The notes beneath the pieces were generated by a model. It saw only the letters and a list, made by a program, of their open reading frames with translations, was not told the origin of the DNA and made no database searches. Shown here piece by piece: positions 18,055 through 64,000 of a stretch of DNA of 64,000 nucleotides. The position numbers and the translations under genes were made by a program. The stretch is from Schmidtea polychroa. Its lineage: Eukaryota. Within the stretch, counting starts at the first letter, position 1, and each line of letters opens with the position of its first letter. The stretch lies in contig CM097887.1 in NCBI GenBank assembly GCA_044892525.1, positions 109,842,397-109,906,396 of the forward strand, in the 5' to 3' direction.

Positions 18055-18541
18055 TATTTATATTTTTAAATGATCCTATTGGATAATTTTGAGCTGATAT
18101 TTATATTCAATTAAAAAATATTTCAACTTATCCGAGAGACAATTGACAGAATAATTAATGAAAATGAGAACTGTAAATAACTTATCATTTCTCCCTTATT
18201 TGTTGCACGAGTTTTATTGAGGAAATTTTTTACATCTGTCATTGTCACATTTTTTTCATCAACATTTTTCAAAGATTTTCAATTTAAAACTCAAGCAAAT
18301 GTTGAGGTTATGAAATCAAAAATTATTTCTTTCCTCTTTCTAGGTGAAATCGAATTTTTTCCAATGTTTGTTTTTATTATCGTTATTATTATTAATATTA
18401 TTATTGTTGTTATTATTGTTTGTTTAATTTGTTTCTATTGATAAAAAAATGTAAAATTGAAATTTTAATTGACATTTTTATTTTGATATAAAAATATTCA
18501 AATTCATGGAAATAGGGTTTTTTGGGTGGCATCTTTTAATA

Positions 18542-21393: not shown

Positions 21394-21672
21394 TAAACAA
21401 AACATTTCAAAAGGGATATAAGTTTAAGTTTTTATCAATCCATCATATCACATATGAGAGCGAATACCGAAGACAATCTAATCTATTCTTCGGTACTAAT
21501 GAAAATTACAGATAAAAGATGAATNNNNNNNNNNNNNNNNNNNNNNNNNNNNNNNNNNNNNNNNNNNNNNNNNNNNNNNNNNNNNNNNNNNNNNNNNNNN
21601 NNNNNNNNNNNNNNNNNNNNNNNNNNNNNNNNNNNNNNNNNNNNNNNNNNNNNNNNNNNNNNNNNNTTAAAT

Positions 21673-23513: not shown

Positions 23514-23536
23514 CATTAAATCAGTAACTAGCCAAC

Positions 23537-24720: not shown

Positions 24721-24786
24721 TGAAACTTCATCATAAAATTAAGCTTAAAACCATACTTTTTATAATAAATTGTACACATCATTCTG

Positions 24787-28496: not shown

Positions 28497-28541
28497 CCAA
28501 TCAGAATATTTGAATTTTATATTTAGTAAGTAGTATAAAAA
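28497..28541 (+). promoter_or_regulatory. CCAAT box plus TATA-like element upstream of GPCR
   Basis: CCAATCAGAAT at 28497 and TATAAAA at ~28534; equivalent CCAAT and TATAAA occur at the same spacing before the 47468 paralog. Confidence 0.45.
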
Positions 28542-28576
28542 ATCTGGATTTTAATAAAGAATTCAAAATTGAAATT

Positions 28577-34779: not shown

Positions 34780-35053
34780 AATAAATAAAAAGTAAAAGAA
34801 TCCAAAGAACAAATCTAGAAAAAATATTCAATCCGGTATATTAGAAGATGGATAGGAGCCTGCTGATTCACACACTCCCCTGCTGAGGATCCTCCTAAAA
34901 GTCCTTTTATTTTTATGTAGGTCAGCTCAATGTTTATAATTTTCTACGATTTTCAAAGTTTTTTACACGAAATTTTCCTGTTTTCATGTTGGTCAAATCG
35001 ACTTTAAAAGTAGGGGATCGCTAACTTAAAATTGATTATTGAGAATTCCTGAC

Positions 35054-35556
35054 CAGGGGCGGAACAAGAAATTTTGTCTAAGTCGAGCGTCCTAGGCAAA
35101 CTTTTATGAAGCGCCTACCCTAAAGAATGTCAACTGAAACATAACCTTTCAATCTATATAACTATATAAGCTAACCAAACCAAACTTTGCCTTACCTAAC
35201 CTGACCAACCTTGACTAATTTACAAAGTTTGATGAGGCTAGCTTATATAGTTTAGGAGACATGGCCACATTTGTATTTTAAAATTCTACAAAAAAAACAT
35301 TTTTTGATTTTATAATACAAAGAAATGCATACAAATCCTTACGAGACGTCACCAAATTTGAGCTAGAATACAGCTAAATTCAATCATTATTTGAAGATAA
35401 ATTTATTATAAAAAAATGTTAAATTATCAAACGCATATTTTAATAAATAATTTTTTTTCTATATTCAAGAAATAATTTATTAAAATATTTTACCGCCTTA
35501 CAAAATTGAGCGCCCTAGCGGCCGCCTACTCCGCCTATATGGAAGAGCCGTCCCTG
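35054..35556. mobile_element. hAT MITE inserted in the Polinton left TIR
   Basis: CAGGGGCGG / CCGTCCCTG termini, perfect 8-bp TSD TTCCTGAC; the empty site is seen in the opposite TIR copy at ~41760. Confidence 0.9.
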
Positions 35557-35899
35557 TTCCTGACAAAGTATTTCGGCAATCAATGTCTCATTTCGAAGAG
35601 TTTTTATCGGGGTACCTAAATATATATTGTGATGATCCAAGGTATTGCAATGGTATTGTAAGGGTCATTTTGAAGAGTTTTATGGACGGTCAACTAAAAA
35701 TTTAAATAACTGCGCACATAGATATATTTGAAGGAACCCAAATTAATATAATTAAAAACCATCAATTATTAACAAATGAATATTATTATAATCAAATACA
35801 ATAAAAAAATGTATTTGATTCCATATAAAAATCAAGACGTTAAAAGATATTTTGGTTTTTTCCAAGATTTATTAAATAAAAGACCATAATCAAAATCTT

Positions 35900-38330
35900 C
35901 CACCATTCAGCTGCATAGAATTCAAAATAATGTCCAAATGCGAGACTGATATTTTGCCCCACCCATAATTTTTTTATCATCGTTATTATTTAATGCTATT
36001 TAATGGTTTTTAATAGTAAATAACTGATGATTGGGCGTCCCCATTCTCTTTTGTGGCACTGAAAAAATTTCATTATTATTATAAAACTCTAAATAAAACT
36101 GGTGCCCAATCTCGGTCCCCAATAATTCAACACCTTTCGTTCTCATTGTTGACTTGTTTCCTAACAAACTTAAACATTTAGGTCTTATGAAAACTCATTT
36201 TTTGTACCCAATACCTTTACTCTCATCCTTAAACTTTCCAATCACTGACTCATGGTTTCTTGAGTACAAGAAATGAGCAGAGTCATAATTTGAAGTATCT
36301 AAAAGCTGGTCTCTAATCATTGCTTAACCTCAAGAAAAAAGGAGTCGGTGTCATTGGCAACGATATTCATTATACAATTAAATTCACCTTTATATTATGC
36401 TAAATCTTTATATTGTAGCTGGGTCTATCTAAGCAGATAACCTCTTTTATTTAAATGCACCGCAATCAAATCCTCATTAGTACTGATTGATTTTCAGAAT
36501 TGCGGCTTTGGCGCATATGTAATTGACTTGTCAGCTAAATTACACAGCCTCAAATTCATTGTTTTTTGAGGATTTCTACGGATTTCCTGTAGCAAACTTT
36601 TATTAAACAATTTATAAAGGTCTCAGTATAATTCAATTGTGTATTTTTATCGATTTAATGTTTAAAATTTGTGCCTGTTTAAATTTAATAACTCTGTGCA
36701 TTTTATCGACTTTTACACCTAGTTCGATATAAAGCTTTAAAGGTTTACAATAAAGAATATGGTTCTTCTTGGGATAATACATGGGCTTCAATTTCTGAAC
36801 ATTTGAACCGGGCGGGCACATATTTTTCCGGTCCCACAGGAAAGTCATTCAAAAATTCATGGTCTCAGGATTTAACTTCCATAGTGTAACCATATGGAAA
36901 ACAGCAACAAGATTGGCATAAATCCAAGTAAAATTACCATACGAAATATATTGGCTAAGAGCCCAACCAAATAAATTATTAATGGCAATATACAAAAATT
37001 CCGTGTCTTCAGAACTTGCAGCAAAATGTTTGCAGTTAATGTTTGTAACCCACATTTCTATATCTTGTAAACGTTTTATGGGTTCCTGTAATGTCATTAG
37101 GGCGGAAGCCCATGAAATACCAGGGAGTCAATATATATCAAGAGGTTCTAGGCCAGTATAAGCAATTACCTCGGCGCGGAATTGTTGAAAATAATCTGCA
37201 AGGTAGAATTCGTACAATTATAAGTAGATTTACATGTAATCTAACATATTATTGCAATTTTTAAAATTTAATAATTTTTTTTCAAAAAGTTTGTACAGTG
37301 TAGTGCCTACTTAGTTTTTATACAAAGTGCAACATGCATGTTAAATGCTTTTCGTGTCGAAAGCCATCTAATTCTAACGTTGCATTCACTGCTAGAGTGA
37401 CAATTCATTAATTTCTGAAGATTAAAAACTGTGGTGTAATTACCACCATCTTTTAAAAGTAGTAAATATAAAGGTTCACCATCAGCAACCTTCGATCGGT
37501 GAATTATATCTAATTTGGGATGATGACGTAATCAATATCGTCATTATCAACCTCTATATTTATTGTAAGTTTATAGTAAAATACATTTATAGCTTTAAAT
37601 ATTTATTCTTTCGATCCGAATTTGGGTATGTCACATAACTTCATGGGACAGCCCTTAATTGTATCATATTTTATTTCTGATAAGTATTGGGTGTAAAACC
37701 TGACACGTTCCTTATTCCTGGTTATAATATTACGTTTTAATAGTGCTAAAACACTGTATATGAGACATATGTGATCAATGTTTTAAACTCTAATTATTGC
37801 CTTTTTAAGATTAAGGAAGTTGAGGTTTTTATATAACTATGGCCGGATAATTTATTTATTGCCAATATTTTGTCAAAATAAAATCTATCTCCCTAATTTT
37901 AAAAACCCGCCATCTGCTGCTCAGATATATGTAAACTTTTCTATTTTTTCATGTAACCTTCTTAGCGTATCAAAGAGAAAGTTATCGGAAAAACTAAGGC
38001 ACTATTTGAGAAAAAAGTTATCTTTAATCTACTCATCTTTCTCGAATTGAATGATAATTGTAAATTGAATTTTTACAGACCCCATTTTTTCAATCTCTAT
38101 AATTAATTTAATTTTGTAAAGGATATTTGAACAAGATTTTGTAATCTAAGTTAGATCTGATATTTTTTCGGGCCCCCTTTTAATCTTCTTCTATTTCAAG
38201 CTCGTCATCAATATTAACAGAGTTGAAATATGCTGAACAACAACCTCATCATCACTTATGACAATTGTCTCGATTTTAATAATTTTAGAGGAAGCACAAG
38301 ACCCAATATTAACAGCAGGTNNNNNNNNNN
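35900..38330 (-). pseudogene. Protein-primed family B DNA polymerase pseudogene
   Basis: Colinear with the 53160-57010 PolB (YLADYFQQFRA, SWASAL, INNLFGWALSQ, KEWVFIRPKC); many stops and frameshifts, and the EndoVII/exonuclease region is deleted. Confidence 0.9.
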
Positions 38331-38579
38331 NNNNNNNNNNNNNNNNNNNNNNNNNNNNNNNNNNNNNNNNNNNNNNNNNNNNNNNNNNNNNNNNNNNNNN
38401 NNNNNNNNNNNNNNNNNNNNNNNNNNNNNNNNNNNNNNNNNNNNNNNNNNNNNNNNNNNNNNNNNNNNNNNNNNNNNNNNNNNNNNNNNNNNNNNNNNNN
38501 NTAAATTACTGTTTTTACTATATATTTTAGGATATAATTTCTTCTTGTTAGAACTAAATTGATTTAAATGGCTAAAGAA

Positions 38580-38904
38580 CTCCCTATAAAAATCTCTAGA
38601 TTTTATCTCTATATTTTCTATTAATGCTTTGTAAATGTATGTATTGATACCGCCTTCAATCTTGATATTATTTAATCCGAGAACTTGTTTGATATCGTAG
38701 AATCTGGTTCAACCAAATCCTTTTTATCTTCATCTACAACCTTGATCTGAACAATCAATAAAGTATCGTTCAAATCCAAATATTCAGATATTTCTACTAT
38801 CAGTAATGGAATTCATTGGAAATACTTCTTCAAAGGCCCCAAATTCAATTATTGCATGGGGATAGTCGATCAAATATACACAATTCCAATTTATCGCAAA
38901 TCAT
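38580..38904 (-). pseudogene. Polinton major capsid protein (hexon-like) N-terminal fragment
   Basis: MICDKLELCIFD...IIEFGAFEEVFPMNSITDS...EYLDLNDTLLIVQIKVVD...GGINTYIYKALIEN resembles the Maverick MCP pattern KSELDLF...EYxP...YIDLxxTxLxV...YPYRAYIE. Confidence 0.75.
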
Positions 38905-38981
38905 TGTTCATATACAGTTCCATATCCTTTCATCCGTTTGTTTATATGCGATGACCGGTGTTTCCTACGTCTTGGACCATG

Positions 38982-39275
38982 TTATAGCGATGTGGCTGGT
39001 TTCACGTCCTTTTGAAACATACCCGCAACATTGGGTAAAACTTTCCCTAATTCTGAAAAATCATTTGTTTTCTGAGATAGTAATATCTTTATATCATTCA
39101 TAATCACATCTTTAACAGTTTTCATACCAAAAATTCCTATATGTTTAAGAATCGGGAGTGCAAATCTACCAATTGTTCGAAACCAACTTGAGCCATACTG
39201 CTTACCGACAAAATAAGGTAATTTGCCAACAGATTGGCTACTACTATACATTGAAATAATATCGAAATTAGCCAT
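38982..39275 (-). pseudogene. Polinton small core protein (pX/pVII-like)
   Basis: YFVGKQYGSSWFRTIGRFALPILKHIG fits the QxGxGxGxxFRxxxRxAxPxLK pattern; its ATG overlaps the penton stop (ATGGCTAA); lies between penton and hexon. Confidence 0.6.
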
Positions 39276-40890
39276 CTACTTTACGAAAGTGCAATGTCAA
39301 ATGTGTTTTGAATTTTTTGCGAAATTGATTAATTTACCAGAATCATCGCGTAAATTTATTTCTATATTGTTTATATATGATCTTGAAATCGGTAAATACA
39401 TTGGATCTTCTATTTGGAATTGTACAACTTCACCTTATTCGTGTTTTTCATTCCTTACAGCTTTCATCAGTGGAACCAGAGCATCACCAATAACAACTGA
39501 TTATGGAGTGTTATTACTTTCGATTTTTCAAAAATAAAAAAACAACTTTCAAAATCTCCATATCATCAACAGTATTTGGTAATTGTGTGAAACCCAAACG
39601 TTTTGCATCATTTAATGCATTAAATAAAAGTTGATATGGCTGAATTATACAATAAATGTGAATATGAGTATCTTGAATAAATATTAACACTTGTATTTGA
39701 TGATAATCCAAAATTATATAGAGAGTTTACAATTGCAACTCTGATGTCTTCAATTTTAGATGCAATCTTGGTATATTCAACTACTTCCCACCTGTCGTGT
39801 AAATATATCGGATTTTGAAAATCTACTCTAAAATCGCTTGCTGTATTGTTTGAATGTGTTGAGGATACCTAAATAATAATTCATAAAGAAATAAATAAAA
39901 TTACCTGGGGGAAGATCGCCATGACAAACGGGACGATCTATAGAGACTCAGAAAAGAAAACGAAAGTGAAAAGAAATCAAAAATGAGAAAGAGAAAGGAA
40001 ATAAAAGTTATCAAACAGGAAAATAAAAATCAAGGTCAGTACTAATTAATTAGTACAAAAAGGAAAAGAAATTTTGAAATCAGGAAAAAAGGAAAACAAC
40101 AATATTCTTATCTCGACAGCTTGCGAGTGATAATAGAATTGATGGGAGAAGGCGGCCAAACAAGAAAGGAAAAAGGGAAAAACAACTTGACAGCTGTCAG
40201 AGATAAAAATGGGACAGTCGGGAAAAGCAGGAGATGGAAAGTGGAAAAACACTCGATTATCTGGAGTGCCACAAGAGAAGCGAACTATATAAGGGAAAGC
40301 TGGTGAACATGAAATTAGAACCAAAGGAGGACAAAGGGAGAAACGATTTGAGAGACGATTTGGAAGACGATTTGAGAAACGATTTCAGAGACGATTTGAG
40401 AAATAGAATTATTGAAGAAAATTAGACGTTAGACGAAACTTTGTTGAATAAATGATTGTCAAAATAATTGTAAAGGAAATAATTGTGGAAAATAATTATT
40501 GGAGAAGAGTTGAAGAGAAGAATTAGCTGAATAATAAAACGAAAAGAAGTTATTGATTATTTGAATAAAGTTTGAACGAAAGTCAAAGAAAACAACCAGC
40601 TCAAAATCCCAGTTTAGAAACCAATCAGTGATTGTGATCTTTTAATCCGGTGTTATACGAAAGTGCTATTCCTCACCGAGTGTTGTAATAAGCATTGTAT
40701 AGTCACCAAGTAGAGTGTTGAATTTATTGTCAGTGTCAAGTGAAAATTTATTTGTGATTATCAAGTGTTGTCAAGTGTTATTTGTGAATTATATAAAGTC
40801 ACGCTTGGAGTCAGAGTAACATTAAATTTCATCACCAACTCAATAACACAACAAATGAATAAGTGGACAACGATTGCTGAATAAAATAGT
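39268..40890 (-). pseudogene. Polinton minor capsid (penton) pseudogene split by a solo LTR
   Basis: Removing the LTR restores ILFSNRCPLIHSNNTASDFRVDFQNPIYLHDRWEV; C-terminus VIGDALVPLM...PMYLPISRSYINNIEINLRDDSG...LTLHFRK is typical of Maverick penton. Confidence 0.8.
39857..40853. mobile_element. Gypsy-type solo LTR (copy 2, inverted relative to copy 1)
   Basis: TGTTG...CAACA termini, 4-bp TSD AATG (39853-39856, 40854-40857). Confidence 0.88.
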
Positions 40891-40898
40891 CTAGAAAT

Positions 40899-41460
40899 TT
40901 ACTTGACCAAATCTTTTGCTAACATCCATGTTGGGTTTGGATATTCAACGCACTTGACATAGTATTGTTTTTCCTTGCCTACCTTGATAGTTTTCAAATT
41001 TTCTGGATTCTGAACATTGTAGGTTGTGGGATAACTTGTAATTCATGCTCATAAAATTTCCCGTGTACAACATTATTATCACAGTCTTTAATGACATACA
41101 TAACAGGATACTATTTTACACTAACTTTTGAAATAACAAAAACTTCATCATTCCAATTTGTATCGAAATATTTGATGAATGGTGATGCTCTAATTTCACT
41201 AATTCTAACATGATAACCGACTTTATATTTCGATTTTATAATTTTTTTAACTTTTTAGAAAGAAATGAATAAACTGAACTTTTCGATGAGATATCTACCG
41301 GTTTCAATCCTTTTAGACCTTGCTATGATGAATGATTATAATTTTAGGCAAAACGTGTATCCATATTTTATTACCTTGGTGTACAAAATATTTCTTCAAT
41401 CTATCTCCCAATGTCCGATTAAATCTCTCGAAATTGGCGGTTTGTATTGAGAATGTACTG
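40899..41460 (-). pseudogene. Polinton retroviral-type integrase, C-terminal part with chromodomain
   Basis: VRISRASPFIKYFDTNWNDEVFVISKV...GKFYEHELQVIPQPTMFRIQKI...KQYYVKCVEYPNPTW matches the Maverick integrase pattern VRIS...NWTEE.F...G.FYEEELQ plus chromodomain. Confidence 0.8.
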
Positions 41461-43594
41461 AGTAATGATTTATTTTAAGACGATCCAAGATTTGCTTATC
41501 ATATTAAATCATATTAATTCATTTATTTAAATTAAAAAATAATTAGAAATAAATAATGAAAATTTAAATATAGATGATTTTTTATTTTCTTTATTATTTT
41601 CTTACTAAAAACTTACTATATACATTTTGAGTTGACCGTCCATTAAACTCTACAAAATGACACTTGCAATACACTTCTAATACCTTGGATTATCACAATA
41701 AACATTTGGGTACCCTGATAAAAGCTCTTCAAAATGAGCCATTGGTCGCCAAAATACTTTGTCAGGAATTCTCAATAATTAATTTTAAGTTAGTGAACCC
41801 CTACTTTTAAAGTCTATCTGGCCTACATAATTTTTTATAAAAATTTTCGATTCTTAAATTTGTTGAATTATTCTTTATTTTATTGTCCATTACACACATT
41901 TACGCATACGGTGAGCTTTTCTAGCCCCGATATATTTTTCTTACATGACCTACTTTAGGTTTTACTATTTACAACTAATTCCGAAATTTAGTAACTTTAT
42001 AGTATAAAAAAAATCAATAAATTTATAGTATTACTTGTGTGTAGAAATTTATTGTTCCGAATTTTAATAACTTTATTATAAGATTTGTGAAGGTGAGAGA
42101 AAAATAATTGAACATACCAACACAAAACACATAATGAAAAATGTATGCAAATTTATTATAGCGTTTTTTGTTCCGAAATAAATAACCATTAACATATTGT
42201 TAAAATATAATTATTTTGAAATTATTAAAAAATTATGCAGGAAATACTTTTAATTTAGAATCCAACAGCTCTACCTTGAGCTTCAGAGAAAAAGAAGAAA
42301 GTACATCGTAAAATTTAATTATAAAATAATTTAGAATATAAACTTTCTTTAGATTCACAGATATTTCCTTTTCGCGAAGTTGAAAATCTGACAATGTAAG
42401 ATTTATTCATTAAATTACAAAACATTAAAATATTTCTGTTAGCAATAGGTGTGAAAGGTGCAATTCATCACCAATTAATTATAGGATCATACAAAAAGGA
42501 TACCTACCAAAATGTGCTACAGAAAGAAGATTATAAAAATTTTAAAAACTATTTCATACATGTACACCGCTTCTTTCCTAATTGTATTAAAAAAATAAAT
42601 GTCTTCGGTGATTAGTTTATTTATTTATAGTTAAAAATATATCAAACTTACATTTTATCGAAATAATTCCAAATAAATTCATAAAATGTCATAAAATTCC
42701 TAAAAAAACACCTGAAATTTAATTATCAATATGTTATATTATAAATGCTGACTAACAGTAATATTTAAAAACTTGAATAATAATCGTATAATTATATTAA
42801 ATTAAAATTCCAGTCTTAAAAGTTACTTGAAATTAAAAAAAATTACCTCAAAACCATTTTTAAGAAATTGAATAAATGAAGTTATTAACTTCATTTTTAG
42901 GTAAATGGTTAGTCACCTCAACTAGTGTGTAAACCAACGTGAATTAAATTAAATTACTAATTAATTAAATTGCTAAATTTCGGAATTGGGTGTATTGACA
43001 CTATATAGTGTGTGTATTTTACCTGCTTTGAGTTAGCGATCCCGTGCTTTTAAAGTTGATTTGTCTAACTTGAAAACTGGGAAATTTCGTGAAAAAAATT
43101 GAAAATCGGAAAAAATTAGGGTTGACCTACATAAAAATACGAGGAATTTGAAGGGGAGTGGTATGTAAGTTAGCCGGCCCCTATCCATCTACTAATATCA
43201 TTAACTAAATCTTTATTTTTATAATAAATCCCTATTTTCTGATATTATCTTATATTATTAATTTTTTTAATTTTTTTAATTTGAATAAGATTATTTGTTT
43301 TAATGTTAATTTTTATATTTTATATAATAATTTGTTTTTCATAACATCCACTGAATATTATACAGTATGATCCTCAATCACCTCTATATATTTCGGTCAT
43401 TTTCACATTCATATTATCATTTACATGTTAATTCATTACTATATACAAAATTTGAATAAAAAAATAAAATAAAAAAAGTATTATTTATAAAATATTTGAT
43501 AAAAAAAATGTTGAGCTTCAATATTACACATAGATCATTAAATAAAACATTTTATTACATAACTTACATAAAATTTACATGCTATACTTTAGAG

Positions 43595-47467: not shown

Positions 47468-48372
47468 TGGTCAACTGTTCTTACGTACGAAAAATTCCAA
47501 TACATTATCCGGATTCAGGCTTTTATATCTTTTATGGGATAATTTCTTTGACTTCTTTGCTTGCCAATACTTTCCTCTCTTATATGTACCATAAACAGGA
47601 AAGGAAAGTGCTTGGGAAACGAACCACTTTCAATCATATCATGAAGTTTCTCAACATAGCGGACATTATGATGGCTTTTGTTTTAATTGCCAATCTTGTG
47701 ATTTTGAACATATCTTATTGGTATGTGTATTCAAGTTTTGTATTGTTTTATAGCGTTCGTAATATTGTAATAGGTTTGGAAGTCGTAATGTTGTTGCTGT
47801 TGGCTCTCGACAGGTTGATAGCATTCACATTGCCGATGACCACGAAATGGATTAACAAAAAAGTTAACATTGTTATAATTATTTATTTTGTTGGAATTAT
47901 ATTTTATGATGTTACTGTCAATATCATTTTCATTTTCATCCCTTTTTGTGAACTTAAACCATTCATCCAAACTATTTATATTATGATTTATGGTGGTGCA
48001 TGTTTATTCTTTTTACTCGTAAATATTTTCATTTATTTTGTTTTGTTTATCATGTTCTATATGCAAACAAGGAAAATGAAAAAGGATAAAATAAATAATA
48101 TAAATCTAGAAAGTGACGCAAAAATCATTAAATTTGGTCGTCATTTATTTGCAATTACCTTTATCTATACTTGTTGTTTCATACCGATCGTTTTATGGAA
48201 TTCAAATGCAGTTTTATATGTTCCGTTTTATGTTTATTACTTCTTTTATTTAAATATTATTATGAATCCCTTTATTTTTATTTTGGGTAACAAATCTATT
48301 AAAGTTTATTTGTGGAGAATGTTTTCGAGAAATAAAATCGAGCCATTTCGTTTTCAGTTCACTAAAAGTTAA
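47468..48372 (+). CDS. Intronless class A GPCR, recent duplicate of 28577-29482 (301 aa from the ATG at 47468)
   Basis: MVNCSY start homologous to the 28577 gene; the ORF track start at 47401 is a TTG upstream; the duplication extends ~600 bp into the 3' flank. Confidence 0.9.
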
Positions 48373-51256: not shown

Positions 51257-53159
51257 CTCTAATAAATCAGAATCTTTATCAATATTATTTTCATTATCTT
51301 ATTCTGAATCTTTATCACTATATATACGCTAGATCAACAATGGCGAACATTTTTAACAAGGGGTTCACAATTGAATTTATTTTTTGAATATATCAACCTA
51401 CTGGTCAAGTATTATTTTATTTATTAAAAATTTAACAAAAATTCATGTAAATATAATATGATTTTATTTATTATACATTAATTAGGTATATTCGAAATCA
51501 TTCGTATGATGATAATTTTATAATTAAAAAAACAAAACAACTTGTTACTTGAATTGGTTGCGTGGGGCAGTGTCTGAACCGTGGGTCATAGGTTCGCCGT
51601 CGCTGGGCTAGATTAATAATTACGAATGAAGAATATTATAATTTAAATTTTAATTAAAATTTTATTTCATTATGAACTAGCAGTTCTAGTAAATTTCATT
51701 TTGAAAATATTTAATTTAACATCTTACTGACAATTTATAAGTAAAATATTCGATTAAACTAATCTTTATGCGCTACTATCTTTTTCAGTTATCACTTAAA
51801 TTGTTATAAAATATAATTAAAAATTATTAAAATTGTTGATTAAAGAAATTTGTGGAATATAAATGTCGAGAAATGACGTTTTGAAAAACACTTAAAAATT
51901 GTATATATTTTTCGACTTTATGAAAAATTTTAATTTTAATTAATAATGGTGGAAATAAATTGTGTAGTTTGATTATGATGGGGGTTAGGGTTATTACAAT
52001 ATTACAATTTATTTTATTTTGAGAACTAACGTCAATTTATATTTTTTAGACTTGTAATTGTTGCTCAATAAATACTATTTGTTTTTATTGGACGCATTTC
52101 TGGAAATCCCTGGAAAGGTTTGTTCAAATTATTTGTGGTAATTCTGTATTTGTAATAAACTACAAAAATAAATGAAAAAAGTAACCTTTAAGTTTCTTGT
52201 ATTTTAAATTCGATTGTAAAAGTCGACAACAAAATATACAGATCACGATAAAAGAGTACAATATAATATTTCATGCATAGTTTTTTTCGATATATTTCAG
52301 ACATTTGACATTTTCTTCAGAATAATGAACCCATCGACCTACTTATTTATTTATTAAATCTATATGACCTAAGTAGATGGATAGGGCACCGCTAGACCAG
52401 GACTCCGCTGGACCACATACCCCCCCCCACCCCCACTCTAAGGGAAATTTTTAAAATTATTTTCAAGGTCAAATTTTTTAATGTAAAGTTCATTTTTTTT
52501 TTTAAATTTGAAATTTGAGAGTTCCCGACAAGAGATATTATTATTATTTGAAAATAAAGGTCTTTGAAACACAGGGATTATTATTATATATATCCTAGTC
52601 TATCCGACAAAATATTTTGTCCCCCTATGGGTATTGTTCACAAAGGTACTGGTCATATTCCACATGTCGCGAGGGTATTATNNNNNNNNNNNNNNNNNNN
52701 NNNNNNNNNNNNNNNNNNNNNNNNNNNNNNNNNNNNNNNNNNNNNNNNNNNNNNNNNNNNNNNNNNNNNNNNNNNNNNNNNNNNNNNNNNNNNNNNNNNN
52801 NNNNNNNNNNNNNNNNNNNNNNNNNNNNNNNNNNNNNNNNNNNNNNNNNNNNNNNNNNNNNNNNNNNNNNNNNNNNNNNNNNNNNNNNNNNNNNNNNNNN
52901 NNNNNNNNNNNNNNNNNNNNNNNNNNNNNNNNNNNNNNNNNNNNNNNNNNNNNNNNNNNNNNNNNNNNNNNNNNNNNNNNNNNNNNNNNNNNNNNNNNNN
53001 NNNNNTTAGTTTTCATAATAAATTAAGACATTAAAAGATATATTGAATCACAGATCAATTCGATAACAATACGTCATCTATATCAATATCATTGGCATCA
53101 TTGGCTTCATTGTCATCATCATTGAAATCTGGACTCATTCCGCTAAAAAGTGGACGAAT

Positions 53160-56100
53160 TTATGAAATTACTTGATCAACATCTGGAACATCGACTCCTA
53201 AATAATGTCCATATGCGAGACTAGTATTAGGACCCACCCAAAGGCGCTTGTCATCGTTGTTCGACAAGGCTATTTTATTATTTTTAAAAGTAAAGAGCTG
53301 GTGGTTTCTTGTTCCTATTCTCGTTTGTGGCACCGTATATACTACGCTGTTGTTGTAGCAGTCTAAATACGACTGGTGCCCTATCTCAGTATTACCAAGC
53401 TGAACTCCCTTTGCTTTTAAATGATCTTTATCCCCTAACAAACTATAACACTTAGGTCTTAAGAAAACCCATTCCTTATACCCTAAACCTTTACTCTCAT
53501 CCTTAAACTTCCCTATCACAGAATCAAGGTTTCTAGAGTATAAGGGATGTGCTGGGTCATAGTTGCTAGTATCTAAAAGATTATCACGAATCATTGCCGG
53601 CAAAAGAGTGTCAAGCTTACAATGCTTTATCTCTAAGAAAAAGGAGTCAGTGTCACCGGCAACGATATTTATATCACAATTAAATTTAGACCTGTACTTG
53701 GCCAATTCCACATATTGTAGTTGATACATTCTTAGTTTAGACAAATCTAACACTGTTTGACCAATATAGCTAGGCCTGTCTAAACATATAGAATCTTTAT
53801 CCAGATGAGCCACAATCAGATCATCAGCAATTTTGATAGATTTTCTGAAAGTTGGCTTTGAGGCATATACAATCATCTTTTCAGCTGAATTGCATAGCCT
53901 CAAATTCATCCTTTTCTTTAAGTTCTCAACGGATTTCCCATATAAGCTGTTGTTATAAAGCTTAAACAAATCTCTATATAACTCACTGGTGGATTGTGCT
54001 CTTGATGTTGTGTTTTTATCAATGTACGATTTAAAAATGGGTGCTTGCGTGAATTTAACTGCTCTATAAATTTTAACCACCGTCACACCGAGTGAAAGAT
54101 AAAGTTTAAGAAGTCTCCAATGAAGAACATAGTTCTTCTTTGGCCAATGCGTGAGCATCAGCTTCTCGACTTTGGAGTTCGGTGGACACATCTTTTCCGC
54201 AGCAATAGGAAAGTCATTAAGGAAGTCATGCAAGCATTCGGGTATATCGATATCAACTTCCATAGTATACCCATATGGAAGGTTATCAATATCATCATTC
54301 ACAAATTCAGAAAGTATAATATCCAAATCACCATACACCCATACAAAGTCAGCATAAGGCAGATTTTGGCTTAAGGCCCAACCATACAAGTTATTAATAT
54401 ATATGTACAAGAGTTCAGTGTCTTCAGAACTAGCAACATAATGTTTGTTAACAAATGTTAACCCACCCCGTATCCCTCCTTCATAGAAATTAAACATTTC
54501 CATGTCCTGCAAAAGTTCTATGGGTTCCGTTAATGTCATAAGCGCTGAGGCCCATGACATACCGGGAATGCCATAGAAATTAAGAGGCTCAAGACCATTG
54601 TAAGCAATGGCCTTTGCACGGAATTGTTGAAAATAGTCTGCGAGGAGAAATACATCTAATTTAAGGTAAGTTAACATGTAATCTAACATGTTGTTGCAAT
54701 TTTGCTGAGTCCAAATAACTTGGGCTAATGCATACTCATCATTAGACACTGAATCCCAGATCGGAGGTAGTTCATATGTAGTCTCAAGAACATCAAATGA
54801 GGTAGCGAAGTCATATGGAAAGATACCTTTGGATCGAACAATTGCGCCATCAAAAACAGAAGAAGTTAAAGGCAGATCGGAAAGAGTCTTAACCGCTTTT
54901 GCTAAAGATGAATTAACAAACTGCATGCTGTCAATAAAACGAACAGGCAATTTGTTAATATACGCAATGAGGGAGATGAATTTTTCAGTAGTAGTCGGAA
55001 TAATATTTAATTCCCAAGAAGGAAAATTATTCAAGCCATATTTCAAAATATGATGGAGATCATATCCCCTCAAATTGTGAAAAACAACAGGTAACTGTCT
55101 CTGAATTCGCCGAGACACATTACATTTCCTACAAGCAGCACCAAGATACTTGCCTGAGAAGTGGCAATGGTCCCTAACTCTATCTCTAATGAATTTTTTA
55201 CAAAGGTAACAGGTTCTGGAATCTCTATATGCCCGCTGTTGAACGAAAGACAAAGTTTGAATAGGTTTTCGCCCATTAATTTCGTAATATGGCAGGACAA
55301 TTGTGACAGCAATTTCCTCCACCTTACGCAAGAAAGACAACACACAATCATCACCAACAAACTCATAATAAAATCTAGTTTTATTATAATTATTAATTAA
55401 TAACATGCCTGCTGTTATTGGCAAGTGCTTTTGATGGTGTATTATATCCTCAGGTAAAATTGCCTCAAAATCGGCATATATCACGAATGGCGGGGTGATT
55501 GTCGTCGCATAATTTTGAAAAATTAAATTTTTCTCCTTAGGTAGTGTGTATAATGTAGTACCTATCTGGTTTTTTATGCATAAGGCGACATGAATATCAA
55601 ATGCATTTTTATGTCTAAAACCATTGAGACAATGGGGACACCAGTTCACTCTAATCCAAAGGTTGCAGGAGCTACTGGGATGTGAGTTCATTAATTTTTG
55701 TAAGTTAAAAACTGCGGTATAATGGAAATTATCACCGTCTTCCAATAATAATAAATATATGGGTTCACCACCTATAACCTTAGATCGGTGAATAATATCT
55801 AAATGAGGATGATGGGGAATATAGTTACTATCATCGTTTTCTATAGGCTTAGCTGGGGTCTTTTTATAAATTAAAACATTTATTGATAAATTTAAATCCT
55901 TGTTTTTCCTTTCAAATTTAGGGATATCACATAATTTCATGGGGCAATCATCTATGGGGTCAAAATTTAACTCGTCAAGATAATTTTCATAGGAACTAAC
56001 ACGATTTCTATGATGACGTATAACATTACGTTTTAACAGTGCTAAAATACTATAGATAAAGCACATATCATCGGTGTTTTTGACGTTTACTATTGCTTTT

Positions 56101-57010
56101 TAAGAATTTAAAGCTGATGGGGTGGGTATATAACTATGTCCAGCTAGCCTATTCATATGGGTAAATTTTGTTAATATAAAATCTATCTCTTTGATTTTAA
56201 CCACCCGCCATCCGCTACCCAAATATGTGAATTTTTCTATTTTCTCATTTAACTTAGTGATACCCTCTACTAGAAAATTTTCTGAAAAAACTTCTGCGCT
56301 ATTAGAGAAAAAATTATCTTTAATTTCCCCATCTTTTTCGAATTGGATTAAAACGGTGAATTGTATTTTAACTGTGCCCATACCTACGATTTCGGCAATT
56401 AATTTATTTATAATTTTATTTGTAAGGGAAATTTGCACCAAGTTATCCTTTTCCATATTAAAGCGTAAATTTTTTCTCGCCCCTTAAAATCGACTTCTAT
56501 TTCTGGTTCATCGTCAATATCGATAGAACTCTTATTATTTACTGAACCACCTATTTGATTATATACGGAAACACCAGTTGTATTAATTTTAATAATTTTA
56601 GAGGGAACACCAGACCCAAAACTAACAGCAGGCTGTTTATTATTTAGAATATTATTTATTTTAGTATTTAGATTAGTATTATTTACATTATTATTTACAT
56701 GTTTTGTATTATTATTTATAGGTTTTGTATTTATGTGTTTTGTGGTATTATGTGTTGATTGTTGTATTTTAATAAACAATTTCTTTTTATTTAAAGAGAA
56801 CCGATTTAAATGTGATTTGTGAATATTATAAAACTCTATATATTTAATGCTTTGGGAAGTCTCGCATATTGGACATATAAAGTAGTTGATGCCAAAGAAT
56901 CTATGACCGTAGTATTTTTTCATATTTTTATGGCATATATTTGTATGATCATTTGATGACATGCAGTAGCGTGGGTATAATTTACCTGATAAATTATAAA
57001 TATATATCAA
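53160..57010 (-). pseudogene. Protein-primed family B DNA polymerase with EndoVII-like zinc domain; three point lesions
   Basis: 968-aa ORF (YADFE, RDHCHFSGKYLGAAC, FHNLRGYD, KLYNNSLYGK, AGDTDS, LRPKCY) is in frame with ORF 56100-56456 across one TAA, and joins ORF 56408-57010 after a 1-nt deletion at ~56480-56483; motif A Asp is Tyr. Confidence 0.92.
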
Positions 57011-57349
57011 ATATATTAATAGATTTAAATATTAATAAAATATTGCATTTATATTTAATGACTTTATTAACAATTCTTAAGCCGTATTTATCGCATAATA
57101 ATTATAAAACGGAATAATAATCGGAATACATATATAATTTATTGTAATATTATCATTATCAGAGGTATAAAATATGGGAGATATCATAAATATTATTATA
57201 ATTGTTATTATTATTATTATATCTAATATTACTATTTTTTTTTAATATTATTATTAGAGAAAGTAGTTGCGTGCTCAATGCAAACTATGTTTCACAATTA
57301 ATATTTTCAAAGTATTATTTCTATTCAATTATTATTTTCATAACAACTT

Positions 57350-57770
57350 ATTAATTTCAACATCATTTTCAGGAACATATTCATATTTGTCATAATTTTC
57401 AGATTTTTCATAATTTTTTATTTTTTTTTTCAGAAAAATTTTCATAATTTTCAGGAACATTTCAGGATTTTCATCATTTTCATTATAATTTCAGGAACAT
57501 CTTCATGATTTTTCAGATTTTTCATAATTATTTTCAAAAACATTTTCATAATTTTCAAGAAAACATTTCATTATTTTCAACATTTTCATAATTATTTTCA
57601 CAAAAATTTTCATATTTTTCATAATTTTCAACATTTTCATAATAATTTCAGGAACATTTTCATAATTTTCAGCATTTTCATAAGTTTCTGGAACATTCTC
57701 ATAATTTTCAACATTTTCATAATAATTTCAGGAATATTTTCATCATTTTCAACATTTTCATAATTTATAT
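57350..57770. repeat. Degenerate 8-20-bp tandem repeat (TTTTCATAA / TTTCAGGAACA) between PolB and the acidic gene
   Basis: Direct reading; a similar repeat borders the gap at 58540-58633. Confidence 0.85.
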
Positions 57771-57840
57771 GTGGTTATTAAACAAATTAATTATCAAACA
57801 CAATTTTTAATTAATTTAAAAAAATAATAATAAAATATAA

Positions 57841-58335
57841 CTAACATTTTGATTCTATATCGGAATCATCCTCAGATTCATCCCCATAAGAAACGGAGGC
57901 ATGATTAATTTCCTCCTCAATAGACGTGAGGGCATATTCACCAGAAACATTATTAATATTTGGGGCATATCCAACATTTGAGGTATCATCACCTTAAGTT
58001 TATGTAATTCATTAATTAAATAAAATAAATTTACCCATTGATTCCATGATAATATCTCGGGTATTGTCTTCAATAACATTTTCACCGTCATTAATAGGCT
58101 GATCAACTAAATAATTTTATTTTCAATTAAATTTTAAAAATAAATTTACTTAATAAAATATCTTCTTCATCGTCACTAATAATAATTGGCTGATCTTGAT
58201 TATAGTTGTCGGCCTCGGTGACTTCATACCATAAATTCTCTAAAATAATAAATAATAATAATAATAAAAATAAAATAATTTACCGTTTTCTCCTGCCAAC
58301 ATGGCGCGTAAAATATTATCTAATTCACTGTCCAT
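57841..58335 (-). CDS. Spliced gene for a 121-aa acidic protein of unknown function (exons 58335-58284, 58239-58150, 58106-58035, 57992-57841)
   Basis: Three GT-AG AT-rich introns of 44, 43 and 42 nt, all phase 1, give MDSELDNILRAMLAGENENLWYEVTEADNYNQDQPIIISDDEEDILLIDQPINDGENVIEDNTRDIIMESMGDDTSNVGYAPNINNVSGEYALTSIEEEINHASVSYGDESEDDSDIESKC* with no internal stop. Confidence 0.75.
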
Positions 58336-58893
58336 TTTTAATCAAAATTTTTTAGTCTAAAATTTGTAAAATTTAAAAATAATTTTGACGATTTTGAAAA
58401 TTGTAACTGCTTATAAAGAAAATGATTATTTTCCGGTCCAATCAAAATCAAGGAAGGGATAGGACAAAAATACATTACGTTGTGGTATTTTAAAACTTAA
58501 ATATATATTTTAAAAACACATTTTGACACTAAATTTGATTTATTTAAAATTTTCATAATTTGCATTAATTTCATGAGTATTTTCAATATTTTCACGATTT
58601 TCAATATTTTCATGATTGTTTTCTTCAAAAATCNNNNNNNNNNNNNNNNNNNNNNNNNNNNNNNNNNNNNNNNNNNNNNNNNNNNNNNNNNNNNNNNNNN
58701 NNNNNNNNNNNNNNNNNNNNNNNNNNNNNNNNNNNNNNNNNNNNNNNNNNNNNNNNNNNNNNNNNNNNNNNNNNNNNNNNNNNNNNNNNNNNNNNNNNNN
58801 NNNNNNNNNNNNNNNNNNNNNNNNNNNNNNNNNNNNNNNNNNNNNNNNNNNNNNNNNNNNNNNNNNNNNNNNNNNNNNNNNNATAAAATGAAG

Positions 58894-59500
58894 AAAACAT
58901 GTGTGTATTACACACAACATACGAGTCATAATTTTTAATCAAGCTATTTTATAGAAAATTAAATTTTATCTATATAATATATGAATAAAAATCCAAGGAA
59001 ATTACGTTAACGTATAATAAATACAAATTTATCATAAAAACATGTGTGTATTACACACAAAACAAGATATATAATTTCTAATCAATCCATTTTATAGAAA
59101 ATTAAATTTTATCTATATATATTATACGAATAAAATCCTAAGAAAATTACGTTAACTGTTTGAAAAATACAAATTTATTGTAAAAACATGTGTGTATTAC
59201 ACACAACATACGAGACATAATTTTTAATCAAGCTATTTTATAGAAAATTAAATTTTATCTATATGTTATATGAATAAAATCCTATGAAAATTACGGTTAA
59301 TGTATGAAAAATACAACTTTATTGTAAAATCTTGTGTGTATTAAACACAAAACAAGATACATAAATTTTAATCAAGTTATTTTATAGAAAATTAAATTTC
59401 ATCTATATATTATATGAATAAAAATCCAAAAAAATAACGTTAACCGCGCGAAAAATTACAAATTTATTGTAAAAACATGCGTGCATTACACACAAAGCAC
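58894..59500. repeat. ~145-bp tandem array (4 units plus a partial) with an imperfect palindrome
   Basis: Core CATGTGTGTATTACACACAA at 58898, 59041, 59187, 59331, 59476 (spacing 143-146 bp). Confidence 0.92.
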
Positions 59501-60754
59501 CAAACTGAAATTGTAATTGCGCCATGTTGTAGAGAATGTAATTCTGCCTATACATGGTTACACTTAAATCTCGATCAGACCTGTTAAAAGTGACAAAAAA
59601 GAGTAAAAACAGTAGAGTAGATGGTAGTGGACCATCTAGACCAGGNNNNNNNNNNNNNNNNNNNNNNNNNNNNNNNNNNNNNNNNNNNNNNNNNNNNNNN
59701 NNNNNNNNNNNNNNNNNNNNNNNNNNNNNNNNNNNNNNNNNNNNNNNNNNNNNNNNNNNNNNNNNNNNNNNNNNNNNNNNNNNNNNNNNNNNNNNNNNNN
59801 NNNNNNNNNNNNNNNNNNNNNNNNNNNNNNNNNNNNNNNNNNNNNNNNNNNNNNNNNNNNNNNNNNNNNNNNNNNNNNNNNNNNNNNNNNNNNNNNNNNN
59901 NNNNNNNNNNNNNNNNNNNNNNNNNNNNNNNNNNNNNNNNNNNNNNNNNNNNNNNNNNNNNNNNNNNNNNNNNNNNNNNNNNNNNNNNNNNNNNNNNNNN
60001 NNNNNNNNNNNNNNNNNNNNNNNNNNNNNNNNNNNNNNNNNNNNNNNNNNNNNNNNNNNNNNNNNNNNNNNNNNNNNNNNNNNNNNNNNNNNNNNNNNNN
60101 NNNNNNNNNNNNNNNNNNNNNNNNNNNNNNNNNNNNNNNNNNNNNNNNNNNNNNNNNNNNNNNNNNNNNNNNNNNNNNNNNNNNNNNNNNNNNNNNNNNN
60201 NNNNNNNNNNNNNNNNNNNNNNNNNNNNNNNNNNNNNNNNNNNNNNNNNNNNNNNNNNNNNNNNNNNNNNNNNNNNNNNNNNNNNNNNNNNNNNNNNNNN
60301 NNNNNNNNNNNNNNNNNNNNNNNNNNNNNNNNNNNNNNNNNNNNNNNNNNNNNNNNNNNNNNNNNNNNNNNNNATAATACCCTTGCGACATGTGGAATAT
60401 GACCAGTACCTTTGTGAACAATACCCATAGGGGGACAAAATATTTTGTCGGATAGACTAGGATATATATAATAATAATCCCTGTGTTTCAAAGACCTTTA
60501 TTTTCAAATAATAATAATATCTCTTGTCGGGAACTCTCAAATTTAAAATTTAAAAAAAAAATGAACTTTACATTAAAAATTTTGACCTTGAAAAGAATTT
60601 TAAAAATTTCCCCTAGGGGGGGGGGGGGGGGTTGGGGGTATGTGATCCAGCGGAGTCCTGGTCTAGCGGTGCCCTATCCATCTACTGACCTACTTATTTA
60701 TTTATTAAAATTTATTAAAAATTTATTTATATATATTATGTGTTTATGACAAAG

Positions 60755-60952
60755 ATTTGACCTACTTAAAATATGATTAATTTGACATGAAATACATTTT
60801 AAAAACCTTGAAAACATAGTAATTCTTTAAAAAGCAGAAAAATTTCAATGAAAAACACAAAAATTATGTGAAAAACTTAAAAATTCCTTGACCTACATAC
60901 AAATTCAGCAGAGAGGAGGGGTACTGTGCCAGAAGGGACCAATCCATCTACT
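60755..60952. mobile_element. Right terminus of a further Polinton-like element
   Basis: Ends ATCCATCTACT (60952), preceded by TTGACCTACATA and a G-rich tract, as at the 43193 terminus. Confidence 0.6.
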
Positions 60953-61126
60953 CTCTTGTTAAAAATACTGAATGTGATAAATATATCATTCAAATGGCTG
61001 CAAACCAAAATTTTAGATCTTATGATTGTTTCAGCATCTCTACAAAATGCTGCAACTTTTGATTACGCAATTGCTGCAACTCACATTCTTTGCTTTCAGG
61101 GATTTTTGGTCCAAATTTTTTTTTAT

Positions 61127-62700
61127 CACACTATAGTGAGGGGGTCTCGATGGTCCTGGGATTTTCAATACAAATAAAATTTTTTCAATACAAAAAGGCG
61201 GTCTACACTAAAAAAGCATGGATTTTTCACACTATAGTGAGGGGGTCTCGATGGTCCTGGGATTTTCAATACAAATAAAATTTTTTCTATACAAAAATCC
61301 GACTATCAATAAAAAAGTCAAGGATTTATCACACTATAGTGAGGGGGTCTCGATGGTCCTGGGATTTTCAATACAAAAAAATTTTTTTCAATACAAAAAG
61401 GCGGTCTCACTAAAAAAGCCAAGGAAGGGGTCTCGATGGTCCTGGGATTTTCAATACAAAAAAATTTTTTTCAATACAAAAATCCGACTATCAATAAAAA
61501 TGCATCGTAATTTAAGGTCTCATGATATTTTCAATACAAATAGGTGATCTACACTAAAAAAGCCAAGGATTTTTTCACACTATAGTGAGGGGGTCTCGAT
61601 GGTCCTGGGATTTTCAATACAAATAAAATTTTTCTATACAAAAATCCGACTACCACTAAAAAAGCATGGAATTTTCACACTATAGTGAGGGGGTCTCGAT
61701 GGACCTGGGATTTTCAATACAAATAAAATTTTTTCTATACAAAAATCCGACTACCACTAAAAAAGCCAAGGATTATTCACACTATAGTGATAGGGTCTCG
61801 ATGGTCCTGGGATTTTCAATACAAAAAAATTTTTTTCAATACAAAAACGATGGTCCTGGGATTTTCAATACAAAAAAAATTTTTCAATACAAAAAGCTGG
61901 TCTACACTAAAAAAGCATCGTAATTTAAGGTCTCATGATATTTTCAATACAAATAGGTGGTCTACACTAAAAAAGCCAAGGATTTTTTCACACTATAGTG
62001 AGGGGTTCTCGATGGTCCTGGGATTTTCAATACAAATAAAATTTTTTCTATACAAAAATCCGACTACCACTAAAAAAGCCAAGGATTATTCACACTATAG
62101 TGAGGGGGTCTCGATGGTCCTGGGATTTTCAATACAAAAAAATTTTTTTCAATACAAAAACGATGGTCCTGGGATTTTCAATACAAAAAAAATTTTTCAA
62201 TACAAAAAGCTGGTCTACACTAAAAAAGCCTAGGATTTTTCAGACTATAGTGAGGTGAGTCTCCTTGGTCCTGAGAAATAGGTGGTCTACACTAAAAAAA
62301 CGTGGTAATTTAAGGTCTCAGGATATTTTCAATACAAAAAGCTGGTCTACATTAAAAAAGCATGGTAATTTAAGGTCTCAGGATATTTTCAATACAAAAA
62401 TCCGACTACCACTAAAAAAGCCAAGGATTTTTCAGACTATAGTGAGGTGAGTCTCCTTGGTCCTGAGAAATAGGTGGTCTACACTAAAAAAACGTGGTAA
62501 TTTAAGGTCTCAGGATATTTTCAATACAAAAAGCTGGTCTACACTAAAAAAGCATGGTAATTTAAGGTCTCAGGATATTTTCAATACAATAAGCTGGTCT
62601 ACACTAAAAAAGCCAAGGATTTTTCAGACTATAGTGAGGTGAGTCTCCTTGGTCCTGAGAATTTCAATAGACAAAGGTGGTCTACACTAAAAAACGTGGT
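61127..62700. repeat. Complex satellite (~100-120-bp modular units)
   Basis: Recurrent CACTATAGTG palindrome, GGTCTCGATGGTCCTGGGATTTTCAATACAAA and GGTCTACACTAAAAAA modules. Confidence 0.92.
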
Positions 62701-62729
62701 AAATTTTTTAAAATAAAGCAAATTATGGG

Positions 62730-63250
62730 TCTATAAATTGAATTACAGTAAATTATGAGCTAAGATTTTTAAATTAAAGTGATGGTCCAAATTTTAAAAT
62801 TAAAGTAAATTATGGTTTTAAAAATTAAATTATAGTAAATTATGGCTCAAATTTTGAATTACAGTAATTAATGGTTCTTAAAAATTAAATTATAGTAAAT
62901 TACGGTCAAAATTTTTGAATTACAGTAAATTATGGTCCAAAAAATTAAATTAAAGTAAATTATGGTCCTAAAAATTGAATTAAAGTAAATTATGGTCCTA
63001 AAAATTAAATTACAGTAAATTATGGTCCAGATTTTTCAATTAAAGTAAATAATGGTCCAAATTTTAAAATTAAAGTAAATTTAAGTTCTTAAAAATTAAA
63101 TTACAGTAAATAATGGTCCAAATTTTTAAATTAAGTAATCAATGGTAAAAAATTTTAAATAAGTAAATTAAAGTAATAATTTTTAAATTAAGTAATCAAT
63201 GGTAAAAAATTTTAAATAAGTAAATTAAAGTAAATTAAAGTAAGATTTTA
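62730..63250. repeat. ~30-bp satellite AGTAAATTATGGTCC(A/T)AAAAATT(A/G)AATTA(A/C)
   Basis: Direct reading; it reappears at 63840-64000. Confidence 0.9.
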
Positions 63251-63464
63251 AAATTTAATTACAAAATAATAGAAGGTGTTTGATAATTGAAATTTTTTTT
63301 ATGAAAATTTTTATGGAATAATTTTTTAAGTAATTTTTAATGGAAATTTTTAAGAAATATTTTTCAATGATAATTTTAGATGGAAATTTTTAAGATAATT
63401 TTTATTGAAAACTTTTATGAAATATTTTTCAAAGACAAATTTTAATAATAATTCAACAACAAAT

Positions 63465-63790
63465 CAACAACTTAGTACCAACAACCAGTAACTTACGAAC
63501 ATGTATTACCAACCAGATACCTACAACCAGTTACCTGATACCAAGTACCAACAACCAAAACATGCAACCAACTAGGTACCAAGTACTAACAACTAACTAC
63601 CAAGTACATACAACCAACAACAACCAGGTACTAAGCATTATTAACCACCTACTAAGTACCAACAACTAGATACCAAGTACATACAACCAACATCAACCAG
63701 GTACTAAGCATTATCAACCAAGTACTAACAACCAAGTAACTTACCTAGTACTAAGCACTGTCAACTAGATACCAAACACTTACAACCAGA
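63465..63790. repeat. Degenerate C/A-rich repeat (CAACCAAGTAC / GGTACTAAGCA)
   Basis: Direct reading. Confidence 0.8.
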
Positions 63791-64000
63791 TGACCACATG
63801 AAATTAATGGTTAAATATGAAAATAAGGATTATATTTAGTTGTTAAGTAAATTATGGTGTAAAATTAAGAAATAAAGAATAATTAGGTAAATTAAAGTAA
63901 TAATTTTTAAAAAAGTAAATTAAGGTTCAAATTTTAAATTAAGTAACCAATGGTTCAAATTTTAAATTAAAGCTAAATAAGTAAATTAAAGTAAGATTTT

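Follow-up and report, generated by a model that had tools for sequence, protein, structure and literature searches.

How could an element come to lie in a chromosome when it has the ends, the target-site duplication, and the polymerase of a Polinton, and no integrase of its own? This question is raised by a 64,000-nucleotide stretch of Schmidtea polychroa DNA (GenBank assembly GCA_044892525.1, contig CM097887.1, positions 109,842,397 to 109,906,396 of the forward strand; hereafter the window). A preliminary description of the window had recognized a compact Polinton at 52372..60686 that carries the DNA polymerase PolB, and proposed that it was either a deletion derivative or a satellite that borrowed integrase and capsid from helper Polintons. 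We find that this copy is a dead, one-armed, and reduced member of a family of palindromic elements. These elements are probably fold-back (snap-back) satellites of Polintons, synthesized by their own polymerase and integrated in trans, the window copy having lost one arm. This reading draws on the architecture of the copies, their separate insertions, the genes they lack, the selection acting on PolB, a central module common to three lineages, exchange of PolB with full-length Polintons, and the presence of full-length relatives whose ends match. Taken alone, the window copy is ordinary debris, and the interest lies in the family behind it.

A Polinton-type insertion without helper genes

The insertion is 8,315 bp long and is bounded by Polinton-type ends that start with AGTAG. 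The sequence AGTAGATGGATAGG opens both ends, at 52372 and 60686, and the target-site duplication (TSD) GACCTA lies immediately outside each; the chance of a 6-base match at the local composition is ~7e-4. The outer arms of the terminal inverted repeats (TIRs) show 9 mismatches over 309 aligned bases, and when the adjoining microsatellite is included, ~637 bases are matched at 95%. These figures bear out the near-identical TIRs and the perfect 6-bp duplication noted in the preliminary description.

Three stretches of N (324, 249, and 728 bases) interrupt the element in the window, and these had been judged too short for an integrase, hexon, or ATPase gene. In L050, the copy of this locus in the 781-Mb genome (G000) that contains the window and against which the searches were run, all three are AAT/ATT trinucleotide microsatellites of 97-98% A+T with no real open reading frame (ORF), which rules out genes hidden in them. 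The element yielded no integrase, ATPase, capsid, or other helper gene; tblastn with the capsid-like, PZ, and ATPase proteins of families A and C was negative (a protease query was not run), and there was no spare ORF. Compared with an autonomous Polinton, the element has the protein-primed family B polymerase (broken here), TIRs with an AG-rich end motif, and a TSD within the range of 5-8 bp. It has no integrase gene, and no capsid or ATPase gene was found in it. In place of a length of 13-25 kb and TIRs of 100-1500 bp, it measures 8,315 bp, and its sister copies measure 8-27 kb with arms of up to 7 kb. By its ends, TSD, and polymerase, the element is therefore a Polinton, but it does not belong among the autonomous ones.

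The best database relatives of PolB (identity 61% and below) carry precomputed PF03175 annotations. Pfam itself gave no direct PolB match for these proteins and only a weak endonuclease VII match for the window PolB, and a PDB sequence search with these proteins returned 0 matches. In the window copy, the gene is broken by a frameshift near 56480 and a stop at 56100-56102, and polymerase motif A is altered; in some sister copies, the reading frame is uninterrupted. Four predicted leader exons of 52, 90, 72, and 147 nt, separated by introns of 44, 43, and 42 nt, each end in phase 1, the phase in which the PolB frame is entered from the acceptor at 56986, and for this reason we assign them to PolB. 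The small spliced gene of the preliminary description is thus most likely an acidic PolB leader, as predicted from splice phase, and the two would form one gene. The idea of a separate small gene was dropped on these grounds.

The window copy belongs to a family of quasi-palindromes

We refer to the lineage of the window element as lineage B. A genome search with its TIR, in which the best 40 of 1813 candidates were scored, gave 13 end pairs of 8-27 kb, the window copy included. The TSDs are exact over 6 bp in 12 of these pairs and match at 5 of 6 positions in the remaining one, and all of them differ. Apart from the window copy, every end-paired copy (12 of 12) carries PolB sequence in both halves, in inverted orientation. 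The typical member is a quasi-palindrome of 10-18 kb with two PolB genes, in the order terminus, PolB, leader exons, central module with an inward-facing terminus, short spacer, and mirror image. Both outer ends correspond to the PolB-side end of the parent, whose other end type occurs internally only. The arms span 2.1-7 kb, and their main blocks are 97-99.6% alike. Similarly, 26 of the best 40 B PolB matches lie in inverted pairs less than 30 kb apart. Helper genes were sought in 42 palindrome loci without a match, except for one nested, unrelated Polinton.

The exact 30-base end occurs 26 times in the genome, so lineage B is modest in number. Forms with a single PolB (the window copy, L136/137, and L127) are a minority. 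Among 15 stretches retrieved from unpaired ends, three lie in full-length elements, one lies beside a capsid fragment, and one (L130) is a partial palindrome. A uniform 8.3-kb family was not found: members vary in length, and the many same-length copies that had been predicted did not appear. Capsid-less PolB copies with different TSDs are nevertheless numerous, their PolB evolves under purifying selection, and candidate helpers that share their ends reside in the same genome. The proposal of a deletion derivative describes the window copy, which is one-armed and broken; it does not describe the family, which is palindromic and has its own TSDs. The frameshift of the window copy is also present in copy E10, which is inserted elsewhere with a different TSD, and this fits movement of an already broken lineage with polymerase supplied in trans.

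Some members have acquired insertions of their own (L037:550-3580, L046:8600-L047:1430, and L084). One arm of E4 is interrupted by a 3-kb element that itself has inverted ends. E9 carries a transposase-like insert at its centre, and E11 has an ORF-free centre of more than 9 kb that is itself palindromic.

A central module is shared by three PolB-only lineages

The central module of the window element (58890-59645) ends in an inward-facing terminus of the type found at the other end of a full-length copy, which here stops after ~50 bases and enters the right AAT tract. Searching with this module led to two further lineages, D and F, whose PolB is ~53-56% identical to that of B over most of its length. 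In D and F, the module matches that of the window copy at 78-95% identity. Its 144-bp array is common to the three PolB-only lineages and was not detected in full-length elements. Neither the module nor the leader region was detected in family A or in the A' elements described below. The motif at the module junction has 200 exact matches in the genome, against 0 for a control, and 48 of the first 100 listed fall in inward pairs less than 1.3 kb apart (pairs counted by eye). In L127, the spacer between two internal termini is predicted to fold end to end (z -7.95).

Lineages D and F are also palindromic, with exact TSDs in 4 of the 4 copies in which both ends were seen, and have their own subterminal sequence after AGTAG. 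Inverted pairs less than 30 kb apart account for 30 of the best 40 PolB matches in D and 24 of the best 40 in F; for the autonomous family A, the count is 0 of the best 40. Two unpaired D matches were retrieved and both proved to be palindromes, their partners lying beyond the best 40. The D matches are all ~100% identical, with a narrow spacing of 8.8-12.1 kb, which suggests that the youngest copies are already palindromic. Inside its true right end, the copy D1 carries a second terminus along with 163 bases that repeat, in inverted orientation, the host DNA flanking its left side (L145:7701-7979, L144:1144-1306). This flank copy must have been made at or after insertion and would be a trace of arm-templated repair.

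As a separate observation, helper-type ends and the central spacer of palindromes are full of ATGAGTCA and TGACCTTG repeats (L073:2500-2860, L074:8100-8500, L127:7780-7990), which in the palindromes stand between two divergent PolB genes. ATGAGTCA and TGACCTTG resemble AP-1 and nuclear-receptor sites.

Full-length relatives share ends and have exchanged PolB with lineage B

Family A is young, numerous, and autonomous, and its PolB is ~75% identical to that of B. It encodes an integrase, with weak rve and chromo matches, and an A32-type ATPase. A 426-aa protein has Atlas neighbours that are double-jelly-roll-like at 0.97, with low recognition flagged, making it a lead for a double-jelly-roll-like capsid. 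Of the first 22 terminal bases, family A and lineage B share 21. Family A further encodes a 154-aa TBP-like protein (L072:7622-8083 (+), PF00352, E 1.5e-15), and within its integrase gene a trinucleotide microsatellite varies in length without breaking the reading frame (ORF lengths 401, 387, and 417 aa in L057, L059, and L060).

Three further stretches, which we call A', combine the exact B-type end and a B-like PolB with the capsid-integrase block of family A. One of these copies could be closed: it measures 15.4 kb, is flanked by the TSD CTCATT, and terminates on its far side in the end type that is internal in the palindromes. The notion that lineage B has no full-length parent with its own end is thereby ruled out. 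Between A' and the window copy, PolB is 98-99% identical in the C-terminal half (one copy) and 72-77% identical toward the beginning of the main exon. The PolB phylogeny with capsid-bearing copies that the preliminary description had called for places A' copies scattered among capsid-less ones: two of them nest there, and a single A' clade was rejected in a tree from which the D and F rows were left out (approximately unbiased test, AU p 3e-42). Full-length elements have thus exchanged PolB with lineage B.

The preliminary description had pointed to the neighbouring element at 34843-43193 as a representative of the helper family. It does retain PolB, capsid, PZ, and integrase remnants, but it is too heavily decayed to be a working helper. 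The candidate helpers are instead full-length families that are younger and lie at other loci. Another Polinton family with a distant PolB (~27% identity) has its own integrase, ATPase, and capsid-like genes (L086-L088, L077-L082), and palindrome E12 has one of its copies nested inside.

PolB is under purifying selection and the arms of each element are alike

The ratio of nonsynonymous to synonymous substitution rates (dN/dS) was calculated over PolB residues 700-1270, for which 37 of 48 segments were usable. For B, the mean is 0.15 (20 elements), and for D and F it is 0.19-0.21, values that indicate purifying selection on PolB. Most copies are broken. The two arms of one element are 0-5 changes (0-0.3%) apart, whereas elements are up to dS 0.5 apart. 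Both arms cluster together in all 9 B elements that have both in the tree, as well as in F1, F2, and D1; the arms of D2 were not paired. Private stops and frameshifts were compared in 24 elements. Fifteen were present in both arms; of the 7 one-arm entries, 4 were compensating pairs, leaving 3. This ratio of 15 to 3 suggests that the arms are actively homogenized.

Origin of the palindromes

We infer an origin by fold-back from the chemistry of protein-primed, strand-displacing polymerases. Copying would start from the AGTAG ends and be carried out by the element's own PolB or that of a sister copy. The strand displaced during protein-primed replication would fold back at paired internal termini or at AAT/ATT tracts; its 3' end, itself a terminus, could pair with the inverted internal terminus, and the L127 spacer is predicted to fold in that way. 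Extension would then copy the PolB-bearing left arm, giving a palindrome with the left end on both sides. As in snap-back or copy-back defective genomes, both ends of these elements and the genes adjoining them come from one parent end. Fold-back or deletion at AAT/ATT tracts would give E1, E10, and the window copy; in the latter, the right arm may have been lost by deletion or early fold-back from the internal terminus to the right AAT tract.

TSDs require an integrase and the elements encode none, suggesting that it is supplied in trans, by a co-resident full-length Polinton whose integrase would recognize the same ends. Capsids were perhaps borrowed from helpers as well. Foldback-type DNA transposons are mobilized by a cut-and-paste transposase of their own superfamily; here, the ends and the TSD length point to a Polinton integrase instead. 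Once formed, the two arms could be held to one sequence both when replication copies them anew and when, after insertion, one arm serves to repair the other.

Several observations weigh against a fold-back origin. All copies seen are integrated, with no hairpin or free form among them, and the palindromes and the identity of their arms are known from the assembly alone. Turnaround points differ widely in B, as the range of arm lengths (2.1-7 kb) indicates. The flank copy in D1 shows that arm-to-arm copying does occur after insertion, and lesions common to both arms (15 versus 3) could stem from such copying and not from replication. The frameshift shared with E10 falls within a short run of A and might arise more than once, and the selection on PolB could partly stem from time spent in full-length A' elements. 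Finally, only the best 40 candidates were scored per search, most of the remaining unpaired-end stretches could not be closed within 10 kb, and the capsid-free status of D and F is drawn from palindrome loci, with no genome-wide search for capsid-bearing relatives.

Some of these points are what would be expected if the mobile unit were single-armed and capsid-less, and palindromes arose after insertion by break repair that copies the opposite arm. The trace in D1 is direct, private lesions are mostly found in both arms, turnaround points vary, and single-PolB forms do exist (the window copy, L136/137, and L127). Still, we consider this account unlikely: copies of lineage D are near-identical yet already palindromic, with a spacing of 8.8-12.1 kb, none of the best 40 PolB matches of family A is paired despite its TIRs, and both palindrome ends are of the same type with exact TSDs outside.

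It is more doubtful still that the elements are plasmid-like linear or hairpin replicons, which maintain themselves outside chromosomes with their own PolB and only now and then enter one through the integrase of a helper. Linear plasmids with protein-primed PolB (pPolB) and their hairpin derivatives offer a likeness, as do the single conserved gene under purifying selection and the shared non-coding module. The evidence, however, comes entirely from integrated copies, many of the insertions are young, and repeated PolB exchange with full-length Polintons argues for replication shared with the helpers.

Ordinary decay of full-length A' Polintons, through unrelated deletions and rearrangements and with no satellite lifestyle, would account for the many broken copies and for A' elements with the same end and a 98-99% identical C-terminal half of PolB, but we regard it as a poor explanation. 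The leader region and the module, undetected in A' and A, are common to the distant lineages D and F, A' copies nest among capsid-less ones (AU p 3e-42), and the TSDs differ from copy to copy; together with the shared module, this largely refutes plain decay. Least probable of all is an assembly or polishing artefact, for although long inverted repeats are hard to assemble, the palindromes have unique flanks with exact TSDs (12 of 13 pairs in B; in D and F, all 4 copies with both ends seen) and arm-specific insertions, deletions, and point differences, and no such pairing is seen for family A in the same assembly.

The fold-back reading can be extended, tentatively and at somewhat less than even chances, to a distinct satellite class. 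Its members would be single-gene, self-synthesizing replicons whose unit is a hairpin or palindromic dimer, with polymerases of different Polinton lineages placed on a shared cis module around a captured helper end. They would use the integrase of the helper and perhaps its capsids, the dimers being near helper length, and would trade PolB back.

Coordinates and surroundings

The features of the element and its nearest neighbours are collected in Table 1. The element sits 266 bases inside a Polinton-type end at 60952, and no second end of this host element was detected within the window. Tandem arrays with periods of ~101, 60, 30, and 73 lie just past the host terminus, at 61122-63966, and similar sequence occurs beside a lineage D copy. 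GACCTAC-like motifs recur in both flanks of the element. Elsewhere in the window, intronless ORFs for hydrophobic proteins of ~300-325 aa (one partial), seven-helix-receptor-like by eye, were found at 17149-18057, 22661-23131, 23818-24738, 28514-29482, and 47395-48372. A 396-bp inverted pair surrounds a partial receptor-like ORF (21667-23519). A second inverted pair, 15634-16695 and 39857-40853, is 93-97% identical and 23-25 kb apart, with one copy inside the neighbouring Polinton.

Table 1. Positions of features in the window, with strand and the basis for each assignment.
Feature	Position	Strand	Basis
Decayed full-length-type Polinton with PolB, major capsid, PZ, and integrase remnants	34843..43193	.	
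Left TSD, GACCTA	52366..52371	+	Sequence of both flanks
Left TIR, outer non-repetitive part, starts AGTAG	52372..52681	+	Alignment with right end
Left-TIR (ATT)n microsatellite, N in window	52682..53005	+	Genome copy L050
PolB, main exon region	53160..56985	-	ORF reading, database relatives with PF03175, comparison with sisters
Predicted 860-nt intron with low-complexity repeat tract (57340-57766)	56986..57845	-	Splice signals and phase only
Four predicted acidic PolB leader exons (58335-58284, 58239-58150, 58106-58035, 57992-57846)	57846..58335	-	Phase match to main exon
Second (ATT)n-type microsatellite, N in window; tract at which sisters E1 and E10 turn back	58634..58882	+	L050, sister comparison
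144-bp tandem array, 4.2 copies, part of central module	58894..59496	.	Repeat search, lineage comparison
Unique part of central module	59497..59610	.	D, F identity 91-95% over 59490-59645
Inward-facing internal Polinton-type terminus, AGTAG AGTAGATGG...	59611..59663	+	Comparison with full-length copy ends
Right-TIR (AAT)n microsatellite, N in window; putative scar of lost right arm	59664..60373	+	Joined directly to internal terminus
Right TIR, outer part	60374..60686	-	Alignment with left end
Right TSD, GACCTA	60687..60692	+	Sequence of both flanks
End of another Polinton-type element, host of the insertion, terminus at 60952	60693..60952	-	

Comparison with known systems

Short palindromic DNAs of phage phi29 have one end duplicated in inverted form by a protein-primed, strand-displacing polymerase, the rest being lost, and in the hairpin and inverted-dimer plasmids derived from yeast pGKL1, one end is likewise duplicated in inverted form. 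The elements described here resemble these derivatives in that one end is doubled in inverted form and the rest is lost. Unlike them, being neither free nor laboratory-derived, they are integrated, under selection, and form long-lived lineages with a shared central module. The phi29 molecules are mentioned in PMC2175359, which cites Esteban 1997.

With Polintons/Mavericks the family shares a protein-primed PolB, TIRs, an AG-rich end motif, and a 6-bp TSD. It differs in having no integrase, ATPase, or capsid, in its 2-7 kb inverted arms that hold PolB, and in its internal terminus. In two sources (bioRxiv 10.1101/2023.08.22.554363, Jeong et al.; PMC8097293, Barreat and Katzourakis), Polinton/Maverick TIRs measure 100-1500 bp and PolB surveys required linkage to an integrase; PolB exchange between Polinton lineages is also described there for nematodes. 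Surveys requiring PolB beside an integrase would miss elements such as these.

Partial Polintons and Polintons with genes in their TIRs have also been described. One report gives ~2-kb Polinton TIRs that duplicate hexon and adenain, along with mobile copies without polB (Pannagram, bioRxiv 10.1101/2025.02.07.637071), and another gives PolB with a TIR and no integrase at 10 loci in C. elegans (bioRxiv 10.1101/2024.01.15.575659). In these cases, virion genes are kept or the copies are treated as remnants, whereas the present family keeps PolB only, in doubled form, so that nearly the whole element is a repeat. Endogenous virophages, as well as Polinton-like viruses (PLVs), have 52-nt terminal palindromes for which hairpin priming is proposed, according to bioRxiv 10.64898/2026.07.28.741278; unlike the PolB-only palindromes here, those palindromes cap complete, mostly non-pPolB protist elements. 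Teratorn, a piggyBac-herpesvirus fusion, has internal TIRs bounding long inverted repeats, as given in PMC6431247.

No description of PolB-only palindromic Polintons was found in the literature searched, although Repbase-type libraries, subscription papers, and supplements may record such families. Among metagenome and viral contigs, no relatives with DNA context were confirmed. A division of labour in which the polymerase is kept, and integrase and capsid are given up, was likewise not found in the literature searched.

Implications for Polinton replication

To our knowledge, Polinton replication has been modelled but not shown. Palindromic lineages that have lasted long under selection, and whose two ends derive from a single side, are the expected trace of protein-primed strand displacement followed by fold-back, and they offer concrete probes for this process in the form of hairpin species, the internal terminus, and the shared module. 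If this reading is true, these satellites would preserve in the genome a lasting record of Polinton replication by strand displacement and fold-back.

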